In this document: positions 824 through 8,007 of the stretch, piece by piece
Numbering within the stretch: the first letter of the stretch is position 1
Layout of the letters: the number at the start of each line of letters is the position of its first letter
IMG/VR virus record: IMGVR_UViG_2529292834_000009
Location: 1-8,375 of that record
Source of the DNA: a virus
Lineage: Duplodnaviria > Heunggongvirae > Uroviricota > Caudoviricetes
DNA length: 8,375 nt
Direction: 5' to 3' (one strand)
Notes under the pieces: model-generated
What the model was told of the DNA's origin: nothing
What the model saw: only the letters and a program-made list of their open reading frames with translations
The model's database searches: none
Translations under genes and position numbers: made by a program

Positions 824-1906
824 TTAGAACTGATACACCAGACCTACAGCGACGATGTCGTCGGTATCAATACCAGCTGTTTTGGTAAACTTACTATCGT
901 CAATTAAGTTGATTTTGTAATCAACAAAAGTGGACATGTTTTTATTAAAGTAGTAAGTAGCACCGACATCGACATACTTGACTAAGTCTCGGTCACCATG
1001 AACACCAAGGTCTTTACCTTTTGACTGAAGGTAAGCAACAGATGGTCGCAGACCGAAGTCAAACTGATATTGTGCTACTGCTTCAAAGTTTTGTGCTTTG
1101 TTTGCAATATGGTTATTACCAAAAACGGTCATATTCTGAGTTTCAGAATATGTGGTAGCCAGATAGATATTGTTCGCATCATATTTCAGGCCTGCAGCCC
1201 ATACTTCCGCATTTTTGCCGGAGGCATTGAATTTGCTCTTACCATAGGCGACCTGACCGTCAGTGCGATCTGATTTAGCATAGGTTGCACCCACGCCGAA
1301 TCCTTCATACTCATAAGTAGTGGAGAAACCGAAACCATCACCATTGGCTTCAGTTACGTCAGTGCGGTCATTTTTACCCTGATACTGAGCAGCAAAGTTC
1401 AGGCCATCGACCAGACCAAAGAAGTCGTTGTTACGATAGGTTGCAACACCAGTGGTGCGACCAGTCATGAACACATCTGTTTGGGTCCAGGTATCGCCAC
1501 CGAATTCTGGCAGAACGTCAGTCCACGCACCGATGTCGTATGCTACACCGTAGTTACGGCCGTAATCGATTGAGCCGTAGTCACCGAATTTCAGGCCTGC
1601 AAATGCAAGACGGGTTTTGTCTTTGGAGGAACCTTGAGATTCAGCGCGGTTGCCTTTGAATTCATATTCCCACTGACCGAAACCAGTCAGTTGATCGTTG
1701 ATTTGGGTTTCACCTTTGAAGCCAAGACGGGCATAAGTAGTATCACCATCATCTGCATCGTTAGAGGAAAAGTAGTGCTTGGCATTAACTTTCCCGTACA
1801 GATCCAGCTTGTTACTGTCTTTATTATAAATTTCAGCTGCCTGAGCAGACATCGTCATCAGTACTGATGCAGCTACAGCAGAAATTGCCACTGTTAATTT
1901 TTTCAT
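824..1906 (-). CDS. nmpC: Outer-membrane general porin, OmpC/OmpF/PhoE family (phage-encoded Lc/NmpC type), apparently intact
   Basis: 360-aa ORF; N-terminal signal peptide [23 protein letters not shown]|AEIYNKD; porin-typical Gly/Tyr/Asp/Asn-rich beta-strand composition; C-terminal ...VGLVYQF (terminal Phe typical of beta-barrel OMPs); position between Q and the holin on the opposite strand, as for nmpC in DLP12 and lc in phage PA-2. Confidence 0.9.
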
Positions 1907-2710: not shown

Positions 2711-3207
2711 TGCCTCCATCATTACGAAAAGCCGTTGCTGCTGCTATTGGTGGCGGAGCAATTGCTATAGCATCAGTGTTAATCACTGGCCCAAGTGGTA
2801 ACGATGGTCTGGAAGGTGTCAGCTACATACCATACAAAGATATCGTTGGCGTATGGACTGTATGTCACGGGCATACAGGAAAAGACATCATTCCCGGTAA
2901 AACGTATACCGAAGCAGAATGCAAAGCCCTCCTGAATAAAGACCTTGCCACGGTAGCCAGACAAATTAACCCGTACATCAAAGTCGATATACCGGAAACA
3001 ACGCGCGGCGCTCTTTACTCGTTCGTTTACAACGTGGGCGCTGGCAATTTCAGAACATCGACGCTTCTTCGCAAAATAAACCAGGGCGATATCAGAGGCG
3101 CATGTGATCAGCTACGTCGCTGGGCATACGCTGGCGGTAAGCAATGGAAAGGTCTCATGACTCGTCGTGAGATTGAGCGTGAAATCTGTTTGTGGGGTCA
3201 GCAATGA
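2710..3207 (+). CDS. rrrD: SAR (signal-anchor-release) endolysin, T4-lysozyme-like muramidase (phage 21 R type)
   Basis: 165 aa; N-terminal Gly/Ala-rich weakly hydrophobic SAR segment ([20 protein letters not shown]) followed by E(35)...D(44)...T motif typical of T4-lysozyme-family catalytic residues; translationally coupled to holin (TAATG) and to Rz (ATGA at 3204..3207). Confidence 0.9.
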
Positions 3208-3665
3208 ACAGAGTAACCGCGATTATCTCCGCTCTGGTTATCTGCATCATCGTCTGCCTGTCATGGGCTGTTAATCATTACCGTGATAACGCCATTACCT
3301 ACAAAGCCCAGCGCGACAAAAATGCCAGAGAACTGAAGCTGGCGAACGCGGCAATTACTGACATGCAGATGCGTCAGCGTGATGTTGCTGCGCTCGATGC
3401 AAAATACACGAAGGAGTTAGCTGATGCGAAAGCTGAAAATGATGCTCTGCGTGATGATGTTGCCGCTGGTCGTCGTCGGTTGCACATCAAAGCAGTCTGT
3501 CAGTCAGTGCGTGAAGCCACCACCGCCTCCGGCGTGGATAATGCAGCCTCCCCCCGACTGGCAGACACCGCTGAACGGGATTATTTCACCCTCAGAGAGA
3601 GGCTGATCACTATGCAAAAACAACTGGAAGGAACCCAGAAGTATATTAATGAGCAGTGCAGATAG
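3204..3665 (+). CDS. rzpD: Rz i-spanin (inner-membrane spanin subunit), lambda type
   Basis: 153 codons from [23 protein letters not shown]...; single N-terminal TM helix then charged coiled-coil-like periplasmic domain; ATG 3204 overlaps the endolysin stop; matches my recollection of lambda Rz. Confidence 0.85.
3424..3606 (+). CDS. rzoD: Rz1 o-spanin (outer-membrane lipoprotein) embedded in the +1 frame of Rz
   Basis: 60 aa [24 protein letters not shown]...; lipobox LVVVGC; Pro-rich (PPPPP, PPP); entirely nested in Rz in a different frame, the classic Rz/Rz1 arrangement. Confidence 0.8.
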
Positions 3666-3696: not shown

Positions 3697-3990
3697 TTAT
3701 TGTGAGCAATACACACGCGCTTCCAGCGGAGTATAAATGCCTAAAGTAATAAAACCGAGCAATCCATTTACGAATGTTTGCTGGGTTTCTGTTTTAACAA
3801 CATTTTCTGCGCCGCCACAAATTTTGGCTGCATCAACAGTTTTCTCCTGTCCAATTCCCGAAACGAAGAAGTGATGGGTGATGGTTTCCTTTGGTGTTAC
3901 TGCTGTCGGTTTGTTTCCAACAGTAAACGTCTGTTGAGCACATCCTGTAATAAGCATTGCCAGAGCGGCAGAAAACAACATTTTTTTCAT
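3697..3990 (-). CDS. borD: Bor lipoprotein (serum-resistance / lysogenic-conversion protein)
   Basis: 97 codons from internal ATG 3990: MKKMLFSAALAMLITGCAQQTFTV... with lipobox LITGC; AGGA 8 nt upstream of that ATG; near-identical to my recollection of lambda Bor; the track ORF 3697..4038 starts at an upstream less likely Met. Confidence 0.85.
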   Translation of the reverse strand: MKKMLFSAALAMLITGCAQQTFTVGNKPTAVTPKETITHHFFVSGIGQEKTVDAAKICGGAENVVKTETQQTFVNGLLGFITLGIYTPLEARVYCSQ

Positions 3991-4349
3991 CTTATTATCC
4001 TGCATTGTTAAAAACGGCAGAATCCTATGTGACAACAATTAAACGATAGTTAAATGGATTGATGAAAATTAAAACTATATAGGTGGATGCTCAGCCTATT
4101 GGAGGAGGGGGGCACTCAGAATCCTGTGGAATGAAATAAACCGCTCTTTCTGTCCATTACCCTTTTAGCTGCGCTGTATCGTCGCCGTATTCCCGCATTA
4201 ACCATGACCGTAGCCCGACGGGGAATTCCTTCTGCGTGAGTGTGCGGGAATAATCAAAAACGATGCACACCGGGTTTTACTGTGCTGACAGACGCAGGGT
4301 TACCCTCATAGTCGCTTTTCCGGTGCGATGGTGGAAGAAACCGGGATGT

Positions 4350-4932: not shown

Positions 4933-5478
4933 ATGGAAGTCAACAAAAAGCAGCTGGCTGACATTTTCGGTGCGAGTATCCGTACCATTCAGAACTGGCA
5001 GGAACAGGGAATGCCCGTTCTGCGAGGCGGTGGCAAGGGTAATGAGGTGCTTTATGACTCTGCCGCCGTTATAAGATGGTATGCCGAAAGGGATGCTGAA
5101 ATTGAGAACGAAAAGCTGCGCCGGGAAGTTGAAGAACTGCGGCAGGCCAGCGAGACAGATCTCCAGCCAGGGACTATTGAGTACGAACGCCATCGACTTA
5201 CGCGTGCGCAGGCCGACGCACAGGAGCTGAAAAATGCCAGAGACTCCGCTGAAGTGGTGGAAACCGCATTCTGTACTTTCGTGCTGTCGCGGATCGCAGG
5301 TGAAATTGCCAGTATTCTCGACGGGATCCCCCTGTCGGTGCAGCGGCGTTTTCCGGAACTGGAAAACCGACATGTTGATTTCCTGAAACGGGATATCATC
5401 AAAGCCATGAACAAAGCAGCCGCGCTGGATGAACTGATACCGGGGTTGCTGAGTGAATATATCGAACAGTCAGGTTAA
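4933..5478 (+). CDS. nohD: Terminase small subunit Nu1 (lambda gpNu1), full length
   Basis: 181 aa MEVNKKQLADIFGASIRTIQNWQEQGMPVLRGGGKGNEVLYDSAAV...; near-identical to my recollection of lambda Nu1 (a few substitutions); N-terminal winged-HTH region; 3' end overlaps the start of gene A as in lambda. Confidence 0.9.
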   Translation: MEVNKKQLADIFGASIRTIQNWQEQGMPVLRGGGKGNEVLYDSAAVIRWYAERDAEIENEKLRREVEELRQASETDLQPGTIEYERHRLTRAQADAQELKNARDSAEVVETAFCTFVLSRIAGEIASILDGIPLSVQRRFPELENRHVDFLKRDIIKAMNKAAALDELIPGLLSEYIEQSG

Positions 5479-5668
5479 CAGGCTGCGGCATTTTGTCCGC
5501 GCCGGGCTTCGCTCACTGTTCAGGCCGGAGCCACAGACCGCCGTTGAATGGGCGGATGCTAATTACTATCTCCCGAAAGAATCCGCATACCAGGAAGGGC
5601 GCTGGGAAACACTGCCCTTTCAGCGGGCCATCATGAATGCGATGGGCAGCGACTATAACTGTTATTAA
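5453..5668 (+). pseudogene. Terminase large subunit (lambda gpA) N-terminal fragment; homology ends after about codon 68, then 3 foreign codons and a stop
   Basis: MNISNSQVNRLRHFVRAGLRSLFRPEPQTAVEWADANYYLPKESAYQEGRWETLPFQRAIMNAMGSDY matches the lambda gpA N-terminus by recollection; the full protein is about 640 aa, so roughly 570 codons are missing; breakpoint about 5655..5658. Confidence 0.85.
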
Positions 5669-6581
5669 TGAAAATCCGACAGCACAAGGATATCAGGCAA
5701 TTGCTGTAAACACGAATGATGCTTACACCTGCCCGGCAGGTTCTTATACGACGATATCGTGTCTGACGAAAAGTGATAATTCCCGGTGTCGTGCAAGGTT
5801 CGGAAAAATGTCTGATAATGGTGCGTTTGTTTTTCATTCAGATGCAGTTCTGGATCCTGTTACGGGAAATGTTGTTCATGGAAATAATGTGACGGTGACG
5901 GCAGAAAGAGTCGGTGAATGGTGGTTGTTTACCGCCACTCTTTTTGCAGATGCGGAAATGATAATCAGCTCAAGATTTGAAATCCTGGCGATGCCTGGAA
6001 TCAGTATTATCCCCAATGGCTCTACGTTAGATATTGCGATGCCTCAGGCGGAGATTGGGTCGTACAGGACGTCATTTATCATTACTGAAGGGGCTCCTGG
6101 CACTCGCTCCAGCGACATGGTGACAATACCTGTAAGAAACAATATTCACCGATTACCATTCAGTGCTCTTGTTGAAGTTAATAAAAACTGGGATATCCCT
6201 CCCAGCAAATCACCATTAATCTTTAATGTTAAAGATTATCAGGAAAATGGTCTGTTCACGCATGGATTCCGTGGTAATAATTTCTCTGATGCCGGTTCTC
6301 CTTTTATTTCTATGGGAGGGTGTAATAAATATGTGGCAACAACCCAGAGGAAAATCATTTCAGGCTTCCGTTGTGGCGCTGATGGAGATGTTCAGGCCGT
6401 ATGTAATGGTGAATTATCTGTTGCGGCAAAAACAACATGGACTTCAATTGTTCCACGGGCAGTATTGCGAATTGGAGGGCAGGGCACTAATGGGGAGTAT
6501 CATCTTTTTGGTCATATCCGTAATCTGCGTATCTGGCATAAAGAATTAACTGATGCGCAAATGGGGGAGAGTATTAAATGA
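5637..6581 (+). CDS. C-terminal fragment of a fibre/adhesin-like protein with a predicted concanavalin/LamG-like beta-sandwich C-terminal domain; 5' end lost at the deletion junction (possibly expressed from internal ATG 5808, or a pseudogene)
   Basis: 314-aa ORF whose first about 7 codons overlap the gpA remnant in another frame; beta-rich N/T/G/S/V composition; C-terminus ...VLRIGGQGTNGEYHLFGHIRNLRIWHKELTDAQM resembles the terminal strand motif of LamG-type jelly-roll domains; stop overlaps the next ATG (ATGA at 6578..6581). Domain call is from motif recognition only. Confidence 0.5.
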   Translation: MRWAATITVINENPTAQGYQAIAVNTNDAYTCPAGSYTTISCLTKSDNSRCRARFGKMSDNGAFVFHSDAVLDPVTGNVVHGNNVTVTAERVGEWWLFTATLFADAEMIISSRFEILAMPGISIIPNGSTLDIAMPQAEIGSYRTSFIITEGAPGTRSSDMVTIPVRNNIHRLPFSALVEVNKNWDIPPSKSPLIFNVKDYQENGLFTHGFRGNNFSDAGSPFISMGGCNKYVATTQRKIISGFRCGADGDVQAVCNGELSVAAKTTWTSIVPRAVLRIGGQGTNGEYHLFGHIRNLRIWHKELTDAQMGESIK

Positions 6582-6859
6582 AAGATTTAACACTCAAATT
6601 TGCAGACAGGGCCGACTTTTCGGCCTTTATGGAGAGTATTGGCTATTATGATGACGAGTCGATGCAGGATGATATTCTTATTGACGTGATAGGTAACGTG
6701 TACAAAGAAACCGGAGAACTGACTGAAGATGGCGAACCGGTATGTGTTAAGGAAGACGGATATTTTGTAAACGTGCGCATCATTAATGATGTAAAAAAAT
6801 CGTCAATATTCGATAAATACGCGGTTGTTGTTGAGCATCAACTTCGTGGCTGGATGTGA
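6578..6859 (+). CDS. Small acidic hypothetical protein (93 aa), translationally coupled to the upstream ORF
   Basis: ORF MKDLTLKFADRADFSAFMESIGYYDDESMQDDILIDVIGN...; Asp/Glu-rich; purine-rich GGGGGAGAG upstream; start overlaps the upstream stop. No recognisable family. Confidence 0.55.
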   Translation: MKDLTLKFADRADFSAFMESIGYYDDESMQDDILIDVIGNVYKETGELTEDGEPVCVKEDGYFVNVRIINDVKKSSIFDKYAVVVEHQLRGWM

Positions 6860-6868
6860 GGGAGACAA

Positions 6869-7573
6869 ATGGCTACATCGACAGTAATTCCAGGAGATAT
6901 CACCACGCTAAAGGGAGATGTCAGTAAAACTAAGGAAGATATTTCCTCAATTAACGGAAAAGTATCAACGCTTCAGACTGATATGACCAGTGCAAAGCAG
7001 GATATCAGCACCAGATACACAAAAACTGAAGTTGATAATAAGCTGAAAAACAAACTGGAAGTGAACGATCTGGAAAGCGGTCGTTATGGTGGAGATTTTT
7101 ACCCGTTGACTGGCCGTGAAGCGTTTTATATGTGGGGATTGGGCACGACTACAGCGGCGGCAAACCTTTATCTTAATCCTGACCCTGCAATTTCGTCTGT
7201 ACTGCGGTCAACATCGTCTATTCGCTATAAACATTCAGTAGAGACGATAGATTCAGAGCACGCCGATCTCATTTTCAGGATGCGCCCTGTGTGGTACAGG
7301 TCGCAATACGAAAATGACAGGCGTGACTGGGGATTCTACGGATTGATTGCCGAGGAAGTAGGAGAAATTGCCCCTCAGTTTGTACACTGGCGACCAGCTA
7401 ACGAAGATGATGCTCCTGAAGCTATTTCCAGCAATGGCCTTGTTGCCGAAGGTGTAATGTACGAACGTCTGGTTGTTCCACTGATTCACCATATCCAGAA
7501 GCTGACTGAAAGAGTTGATGAACTTGAGTCAGAATTAAAGTTGTTATCCGTTTCCCGAAGCGATATCGGATAA
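6869..7573 (+). CDS. Short tail-fibre-like protein: N-terminal degenerate repeat segment plus C-terminal domain resembling the self-cleaving intramolecular chaperone (peptidase S74 type) of phage fibres/tailspikes
   Basis: 234 aa; N-terminal about 14-residue degenerate repeats (LKGDVSKTKEDISS / INGKVSTLQTDMTS / AKQDISTRYTKTEV); C-terminal SSIRYKHSVETIDSEHADLIFRMRPVWYRSQYENDRRDWGFYGLIAEEVGEIAPQFV...GLVAEGVMYERLVVPLIHHIQKLTERVDELESELKLL resembles the S-D-x-R-x-K ... GhIAqEv ... coiled C-terminus pattern of S74 chaperone domains; GAGGGAGA SD upstream. Confidence 0.65.
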   Translation: MATSTVIPGDITTLKGDVSKTKEDISSINGKVSTLQTDMTSAKQDISTRYTKTEVDNKLKNKLEVNDLESGRYGGDFYPLTGREAFYMWGLGTTTAAANLYLNPDPAISSVLRSTSSIRYKHSVETIDSEHADLIFRMRPVWYRSQYENDRRDWGFYGLIAEEVGEIAPQFVHWRPANEDDAPEAISSNGLVAEGVMYERLVVPLIHHIQKLTERVDELESELKLLSVSRSDIG

Positions 7574-7583
7574 AGGAGGAGTA

Positions 7584-7877
7584 ATGGATATAACACCTTT
7601 CCTTCATGCGCTTTGTGCTGTGGCTGCGCAGCTACTGATTGGTCTTTTTACCGGGAACTGGGCTTACGGGGCGATAGCCGGTTGTACGTTCTTCATTGCG
7701 CGTGAACACACCCAGGCAGAATATCGCTGGATCGAAATGTTCGGGCATGGCAAGCGAATGAATATGCCGTGGTGGGGCGGTTTTGATACACGTGCATGGG
7801 ATGTGGCAAGCCTGATGGATTTTGCTGTGCCGGTGGTGGCGTGTCTGCTGGTCTGGCTGTTGGTTAATCGTGGGTGA
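7584..7877 (+). CDS. Small predicted inner-membrane protein (97 aa, two hydrophobic helices), unknown function
   Basis: MDITPFLHALCAVAAQLLIGLFTGNWAYGAIAGCTFFIA...VASLMDFAVPVVACLLVWLLVNRG; strong SD AAGGAGG 7 nt upstream of ATG; Trp/Arg-rich central loop. Confidence 0.5.
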   Translation: MDITPFLHALCAVAAQLLIGLFTGNWAYGAIAGCTFFIAREHTQAEYRWIEMFGHGKRMNMPWWGGFDTRAWDVASLMDFAVPVVACLLVWLLVNRG

Positions 7878-7887
7878 AAAAAGGTGA

Positions 7888-8007
7888 GCTGTATATGCAA
7901 CGGAGGAAGAAAACTCGTTGCTGGAAGCCTGGAAAAAGTATCGGGTGCTGCTAAACCGTGTGGACACTTCCGTAGCACCAGATATCGAGTGGCTTATTCA
8001 ACCATAA
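7888..8007 (+). pseudogene. Tail fibre assembly protein (Tfa) C-terminal remnant, about 39 codons, no start codon
   Basis: Frame translation [39 protein letters not shown] closely matches the conserved C-terminus of lambda-type Tfa (...[33 protein letters not shown]...) by recollection; different frame from the preceding ORF; preceded by an in-frame stop at 7885..7887. Confidence 0.6.

Follow-up and report, generated by a model that had tools for sequence, protein, structure and literature searches.

The gene at positions 6869..7573 (+) of IMG/VR virus record IMGVR_UViG_2529292834_000009 encodes a 234-aa protein, here called the mini-fibre. It belongs to the well-known family of phage fibres terminated by a peptidase S74 domain and is unusually small for this family. 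The analysed stretch, referred to as the window, comprises the first 8,375 nucleotides of that record and is a DLP12-type defective lambdoid Escherichia coli prophage. Probably, the lateral fibre has the mini-fibre as a second, small subunit, which would be trimerised by its own intramolecular chaperone (IMC), after which the chaperone would cut itself off. This assignment was drawn from the domain architecture, a conserved Ser-Lys dyad, the position of the gene in a module, the existence of a longer fibre allele at the locus and the purifying selection acting on the gene. The open reading frame (ORF) of 705 bp starts with ATG, is preceded by the Shine-Dalgarno sequence GGGAG and lies 9 nt past the stop of the upstream gene. 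The product is deposited in RefSeq as WP_000235988.1, a 'tail fiber domain-containing protein', and all of its annotated PHROG matches were fibre, tail, tail-needle or minor-head proteins.

The C-terminal half of the mini-fibre is a genuine S74/IMC domain (residues 116-234; 7214..7570, +) with the architecture of this family, in which a long C-terminal helix (here 198-233) follows an alpha/beta core. In the Pfam search, residues 116-172 were aligned to profile positions 1-57 of the 58 positions of Peptidase_S74 (PF13884) with 27.6 bits (E=3.7e-6), the gathering cut-off being 22 bits. The PDB sequence search resulted in the IMC region of DT57C LtfA (8hqz, E=2e-8, residues 109-222) and also in the ICA domain of MyRF (7dc3). 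The AlphaFold2 (AF2) monomer model was confident at residues 129-233, covering the alpha/beta core and the long terminal helix. The MyRF ICA domain was the top Foldseek match (E=6.6e-6, probability 1.0), followed by the chaperone domains of K1F and GA-1.

A plausible cleavage site was located at the motif SSIRYK. The predicted cleavage and catalytic site, with the cut between the first two residues of T115-S116-S-I-R-Y-K121, is encoded at 7211..7231 (+) by the codons ACA TCG TCT ATT CGC TAT AAA. Both S116 and K121 were invariant in 6 aligned sequences and in 39 homologues, the members of the latter alignment being 30-96% identical to the window protein. T5 pb1 is cut between Thr1263 and Ser1264, and Ser1264 is activated by Lys1269 (PMC4690869); the spacing of T115, S116 and K121 is the same as that of T1263, S1264 and K1269 of pb1. 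For a cut between T115 and S116, fragments of 12.5 kDa (residues 1-115) and 13.8 kDa (residues 116-234) were computed. In S74 domains, a 'sensor' Arg of a neighbouring chain and an Asp, both upstream of the cut, permit cleavage only when the trimer has folded correctly. The upstream residues R113, N99 and T94 of the mini-fibre were conserved as well, but the monomer model gave no basis for matching them to Arg1250 and Asp1239 of T5. In P0017, a Drexlerviridae-type homologue of 231 aa, the corresponding motif is RSTSFSRYK, in which the second Ser is replaced by Phe, whereas neither the nucleophile Ser nor the Lys is changed; therefore, the residue after the nucleophile is tolerant (D, S or F).

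The N-terminal half of the mini-fibre begins with a peptide of 22 codons (6869..6934, +) with the consensus MATxTxIPxDIxxLKx(D/N)VS, which is common to the short and long alleles of the gene described below and may serve as a docking or anchor segment. In the alignment A1, 12 of the first 19 residues were invariant (M1, A2, T3, T5, I7, P8, D10, I11, L14, K15, V18, S19). When compared with the Drexlerviridae homologues, 14-15 of the 22 residues were kept while 24-29 of the 66 nt differed, nine of the differences being in codons changed only synonymously. As the residues are kept despite the nucleotide divergence, the peptide itself is under selection.

The shaft region, residues 8-49 (6890..7015, +), is composed of six unbroken heptads (PGDITTL / KGDVSKT / KEDISSI / NGKVSTL / QTDMTSA / KQDISTR) with the pattern xxD[I/V/M]xx[L/T/I/A], the a positions being I, V, I, V, M, I and the d positions L, T, I, L, A, R. 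Judged by its residues, this pattern is the signature of a trimeric coiled coil, and the AF2 model has a helix at residues 11-47. The heptad repeat matched the tail needle gp26 of P22 (4lin), and it also matched a repeat within LtfA of DT57C (8hqz). No repeat was detected in the DNA with Tandem Repeats Finder; the heptad pattern is present at the protein level only. Among the homologues, the length of the coiled coil varied by whole heptads (-7, -14 and +21 residues).

Between the shaft and the cleavage site lies a conserved segment, residues 71-115 (7079..7213, +; GTTTAAANLYLNPD...VLRST), which would form the far end of the protein after maturation. Its residues T94, N99 and R113 were invariant or nearly so in the 39 homologues. 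An earlier note on this DNA, made from the sequence alone, had described a stand-alone short fibre-type protein of 234 aa with fibre-like degenerate repeats, a C-terminal region resembling the S74 chaperone domain and a plausible site at SSIRYK. All of this agrees with the present results: the ORF, the six heptads at residues 8-49, the Pfam score above the cut-off together with the fold matches, and the invariance of S116 and K121.

The mini-fibre gene is the third gene (gene 3) of a three-gene lateral-fibre module, which is widespread and undescribed. In the module, a lateral fibre of 650-810 aa is followed by an acidic protein of 92-93 aa (phrog_1361) and by the S74-bearing protein. The C-terminus of the lateral fibre consists of a GTA-spike-fibre-like domain and a LamG/ConA-like domain and ends with HLFGH(I/V)RNxRIWHK. 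The carriers of the module belong to phage groups that are not related to each other: the temperate lambdoid phages PhiR49_1 and 2G7b, the Nonagvirus ESCO3, and virulent Drexlerviridae of the Tempevirinae, among them KarlJaspers, PeterMerian and some 40 more. Two inducible lambdoid phages, PhiR49_1 and IdasGreatGrand, have the same 705-bp gene after a full-length side tail fibre gene (stf), and homologues of 225-231 aa were present in virulent Drexlerviridae. Of 5426 complete E. coli genomes, about 723 contained 80% or more of the three small genes, usually beside an intact 'prophage tail fiber N-terminal domain' protein. In the IMG/VR sample, 80 loci (L007-L086) were retrieved with the 93-aa protein; gene 3 begins 9 nt after the 93-aa gene in the 68 loci whose contig reaches far enough downstream, and its N-terminus in these loci is MATSTVIP(G/D/E)DI(T/K)TLK. 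The window has the gene order, the spacing, the gene-3 N-terminus and the LamG C-terminal peptide of the module, with a first gene that is 5'-truncated.

The Stf tail-attachment domain, phage_tail_N (PF08400), was present in the upstream lateral-fibre genes of intact relatives (E=1e-68); no PF08400 match was obtained with the 234-aa protein in the Pfam search. Likewise, no match of the 234-aa protein to the Tfa-type assembly family (Caudo_TAP) was found in Pfam, NCBIfam or PHROG.

The second gene of the module, 6578..6859 (+) in the window, encodes the acidic protein of 93 aa (phrog_1361, E=2e-46) and is always placed between the genes of the lateral fibre and the mini-fibre; the product may be an adaptor or assembly factor. 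No Pfam or NCBIfam family was assigned to it, and the PDB sequence search resulted only in noise. The protein was 46-54% identical to its Drexlerviridae counterpart and 85-100% conserved among E. coli prophages whatever the type of the fibre tip. The AF2 model of the protein was unusable (pLDDT 46.8), probably due to the shallow alignment of 85-97% identical sequences. Further positions of the 93-aa gene were 5720-5998 in L003 and 5710-5988 in L004. A conserved block, resembling a linker for recombination, extends from the last ~27 codons of the lateral-fibre gene through the 93-aa gene to codon 22 of gene 3.

Two forms of gene 3 were distinguished: a short one of 225-234 aa with the coiled coil only, and a long one of 345-351 aa, e.g. 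the 346-aa allele. The long allele has the same first ~22 residues, followed by a body of ~200 residues with shaft motifs of the T4 gp34/gp37 type and an IMC with the canonical motif SDRDLK. Its Pfam S74 match had an E value of 7e-14, and it was further matched to phrog_4563 ('tail fiber protein') and to the PDB entries 6f45 and 4uxe. The tip types of the lateral fibres from the IMG/VR loci L007-L086 and from L001 and L005 were defined by clustering their last 300 residues at 80% identity, which resulted in at least 7 clusters with 33-51% identity to one another. Cluster 0 was accompanied by 21 long and 13 short alleles, and cluster 2 by 12 short and 3 long ones. Since short and long alleles occur with the same tip types, gene 3 assorts independently of the tip, which counts against a chaperone tailored to that tip.

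The HMMER scan of 1.84 billion representative proteins resulted in 3556 matches. Nearly all of the best 150 of these 3556 matches were the extreme C-terminus of a much longer fibre, starting at query residue ~85-93. The closest relatives were lambdoid side tail fibres (phage_tail_N + Phage_fiber_2 + S74) and P2-type fibres; one of the lambdoid fibres, P0186 (735 aa), shared 58% identity over residues 50-223. Judged from these alignments, the 234-aa protein looks like a mosaic in which the putative docking peptide of gene 3 and a small number of heptads precede the terminal 'tip + chaperone' cassette known from long fibres. Metagenomes contained further stand-alone S74 proteins, 217-241 aa in length; therefore, the small size alone has precedent.

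The dN/dS values of the gene were 0.12-0.32 against 21 distinct alleles of 234 codons, and both halves of the protein were constrained. The regional identities were determined with divergent short homologues, mostly from Drexlerviridae. The highest identity, 70%, was that of the chaperone core, followed by the N-terminal peptide (67%) and the segment before the cleavage site (64%); the terminal helix and the coiled coil were 40% and 35% identical, respectively. The possibility of a remnant cut down from a long Stf was ruled out, as the same length and start recur in intact inducible phages and in dozens of prophages and the gene is under purifying selection. The view of the gene as a short oddity of one prophage, or as a cut-down side tail fibre, was not upheld; it is the conserved third gene of a lateral-fibre module in functional phages.

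In the proposed mechanism, the 22-residue N-terminus would dock to a conserved partner, either the LamG-tipped lateral fibre or the 93-aa protein. The six heptads would form a short trimeric shaft and the ~45 conserved residues its distal end, while the IMC domain and the C-terminal helix would bring the three chains into register. After the folding of the upstream segment, S116, activated by K121, would cut the T115-S116 bond and the chaperone fragment of 13.8 kDa would be released. The mature chain would be 12.5 kDa and the trimer 37 kDa, and the 115-residue trimer would stay on the virion, held by its N-terminus.

Several observations weigh against this assignment. Only conservation points to the N-terminus as the docking site, and no confident alignment was obtained for the 'sensor' Arg/Asp that K1F and T5 have upstream of the cut. 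Residues 62-114 were disordered in the AF2 monomer, so that the mature tip has no fold in the model. No receptor-binding domain was recognisable in the mature part, which is very small, and its tip segment is conserved (64%), not hypervariable, whereas receptor-binding tips are usually diversified. No experimental work on the 234-aa protein or a close homologue was found in the literature; the papers on SH6 and AAS23 deal with longer S74 fibres, and the Eligo preprint on STF engineering does not mention the module. In addition, the homologues from the BASEL phages are named 'putative lateral tail fiber chaperone' in GenBank. The small mature part, the conserved tip, the GenBank name and the gene position downstream of stf, where lambda has tfa, would also fit the main alternative, a non-virion assembly chaperone acting in trans. 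With its IMC-like domain and coiled coil, it would help the neighbouring LamG fibre, itself without an IMC or Tfa of its own, to trimerise or fold and would then be discarded. Such a helper is unlikely. The protein does not resemble Tfa-type chaperones, all characterised S74 domains act in cis on the adjacent upstream segment, and both this segment and the Ser-Lys dyad are conserved in the gene-3 protein. Whether gene 3 is of the short or the long form does not follow the tip type of the lateral fibre. A fibre is preferred to a helper because the 346-aa allele at the same locus, with the same N-terminus, carries fibre-shaft motifs, and because residues 50-223 resemble the ends of genuine long fibres, in which the domain acts in cis.

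A variant without cleavage, in which the S74-like domain is kept as a permanent trimerisation knob or a transient cap, was considered improbable. It would be in line with Ser instead of the usual Asp as the second residue of the motif (SSIRYK versus SDxxxK), with a Pfam score only modestly over the cut-off, with the IMC core being the most conserved part, and with the 'chaperone caps' on fibres that have been proposed elsewhere, as cited in PMC11990801. However, the nucleophile Ser and the general-base Lys were invariant at the canonical spacing in the 39 sequences, the Thr-Ser scissile pair is the same as in T5 pb1, and the long-fibre relatives with the SS(I/R)RYK subtype are ordinary Stf proteins. 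On a more speculative note, the short allele might not be a receptor-binding fibre but a minimal 'blank' or regulatory branch, either a coiled-coil stub of 115 residues or an uncleaved capped form, that takes the docking site on the LamG-tipped lateral fibre from the receptor-binding 346-aa allele and so tunes or masks the host range; or the IMC might have turned into a folding device that is encoded separately, can be detached and cooperates with the 93-aa protein. In both cases, the S74 domain would be used in a new way. These proposals are given a low likelihood. The explanation least expected to hold, and highly improbable, is a domesticated gene kept for the host, e.g. for surface interference with adsorption or for defence. 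The intact ORF, 99.96% identical to the copy of an intact prophage despite the lost virion genes, and the recurrence of the truncated locus type in several genomes (L014, L016) could be read that way. Nevertheless, PADLOC resulted in zero matches for the mini-fibre gene and its three neighbours, no signal peptide or membrane segment was evident in the protein sequence, and no promoter-like site was found upstream of the gene in the scan of the window. The near-identity to intact copies is better explained by a deletion in the recent past, or by refreshment through recombination, than by long-term selection in the host, and the evidence for purifying selection was all obtained from phage-borne alleles. 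The suggestion of the earlier note that the protein could have another role was not supported by the PADLOC result or by a promoter of its own.

The reading as a lateral-fibre subunit applies to functional phages; in the window, the gene is stranded. The gene order of the window comprises an ompC/nmpC-type porin gene, the lysis genes essD, rrrD and rzpD, iss/bor, ylcI, nohD, a terL stub and the 3' part of stf. The terL stub (5453..5654, +; PHROG terminase large subunit, residues 1-68) ends at the junction 5654/5655, and its ORF has 71 codons (5453-5668). The 3' part of stf (5655..6581, +) corresponds to residues ~476-783 of a 783-aa Stf and contains the GTA-spike-fibre-like domain and the LamG/ConA-like tip. 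It was matched to NF048003 (E=3.8e-11), to positions 474-793 of the 793 positions of phrog_1419 and weakly to Laminin_G_3. Homology with the intact stf starts at window position 5655, which equals position 4078 of the IMG/VR prophage contig L007, and the identity between the window, starting at 5655, and this contig, in which stf is full-length (783 aa), is 99.96%. As judged from this alignment, a single deletion joined terL' to 'stf at 5654/5655 and removed all head and tail genes together with the N-terminal 475 codons of stf. By the fusion of the first ~68 terL codons to codon ~476 of stf, a chimeric ORF of 314 aa (5637-6581) was created, the ATG of which is in the terL stub; its RefSeq name is 'phage head spike fiber domain-containing protein'. 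The IMG/VR contigs L014 and L016 also have this truncated terL'/'stf form. Due to the deletion, the mini-fibre product has no virion to join.

The earlier note had described a prophage without virion genes, and this is correct, the window having the lysis genes, nohD, the terL stub and the 3' part of stf. It had also proposed that the protein could be a remnant. This holds for the locus, which was left by the terL'/'stf deletion, but not for the gene, which is intact, full-length and conserved. The genes around the mini-fibre are tightly packed behind the late operon, and the terminator-like sites are all inside the stf remnant. In the E. coli genome concerned, the gene is most likely inert cargo of a defective prophage, and the stranded locus can at most be recombination stock for incoming lambdoid phages. 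Lambdoid phages were shown experimentally to pick up DNA from DLP12 and other K-12 remnants (PMC3945230).

Directly downstream of the mini-fibre, a hydrophobic, predicted membrane protein of 97 aa is encoded at 7584..7877 (+; phrog_1443, E=3e-58). The gene has ~95% DNA identity in many lambdoid phages with differing fibre genes (phage 21, 4A7, ev207, 1W, 3W). The protein is probably not part of the fibre; its gene may instead be a moron or serve in exclusion. A short tfa remnant follows the module at 7897-8007 and is a RefSeq pseudogene in the matching genome; therefore, the locus once had a region for a chaperone of the Tfa type, which PhiR49_1 and 2G7b have as well. In the other part of the window, an intact OmpC/NmpC-type porin gene of 360 aa is located at 824-1906 (-) within the prophage. 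The porin copy of DLP12 in K-12 is presumably interrupted by IS5. A 60-aa ORF with the lipobox LVVVGC and a proline-rich tail lies at 3424-3606 (+) in the +1 frame of rzpD (Rz-like, 3192-3665), and this embedded ORF is the classic Rz1/o-spanin arrangement. The iss/bor lipoprotein gene is found at 3697-3990 on the opposite strand, just downstream of rzpD.

If the proposed role is correct, the mini-fibre would be about the smallest natural fibre with a self-cleaving IMC, having ~115 mature residues. It would provide a minimal system for IMC-driven trimerisation and a compact scaffold for engineered fibre tips. The proteins with the database label 'chaperone' are probably fibre subunits. The module, in which two alleles of gene 3 can replace each other, is exchanged among temperate lambdoid phages, virulent Drexlerviridae and Queuovirinae, and this mobility is relevant to host-range prediction and phage engineering. 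For the source E. coli genome, the gene is of interest mainly as recombination stock.

Among the known systems compared, the proteins of Bas05 and Bas06 (QXV84028, QXV82288; Drexlerviridae, Tempevirinae) are true homologues of 225-231 aa, 57-61% identical and located in the same module. In contrast to the window, Bas05 and Bas06 are virulent siphoviruses, their gene lies beside replication genes and the coiled coil is two heptads shorter; the label 'putative lateral tail fiber chaperone' is annotation only. In the BASEL fibre atlas, the TC7 scaffold is defined by coiled coil in the N-terminal part together with S74 in proteins of 559-581 aa, and the S74 domain and the coiled-coil tail were missing from the mature fibre of a BASEL phage in cryo-EM (10.1101/2024.10.28.620165). 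Both are precedents for the proposed mechanism. The overall architecture of TC7 is the same, whereas the mini-fibre is less than half the size and is outside that data set. The lambdoid Stf proteins, such as P0186, have the same end cassette, including the pre-cleavage segment and the motif RSTSSxRYK. Unlike the mini-fibre, they have a tail-attachment domain and a long shaft; the mini-fibre lacks both and starts with the 22-residue peptide of the 346-aa allele.

T5 pb1 and DT57C LtfA/LtfB likewise have an S74/IMC domain with the Thr-Ser scissile pair and Lys at position i+5, and the C-terminal helix follows the alpha/beta core. In DT57C, the fibre is also built from more than one polypeptide. 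However, the T5 pb1 and DT57C proteins are 1076-1396 aa long and have large receptor-binding domains, whereas the mini-fibre has ~115 residues before the predicted cut, mostly coiled coil. The IMCs of the K1F endosialidase (3gw6) and the GA-1 neck appendage (3gud) are the founding members of S74 in MEROPS and Pfam. Compared with these, the mini-fibre has no enzymatic or beta-helical body upstream of the domain and carries SSIRYK instead of SDxxxK. The MyRF ICA domain (7dc3) belongs to a eukaryotic membrane-bound transcription factor, and its similarity to the mini-fibre reflects a common domain, not common biology.

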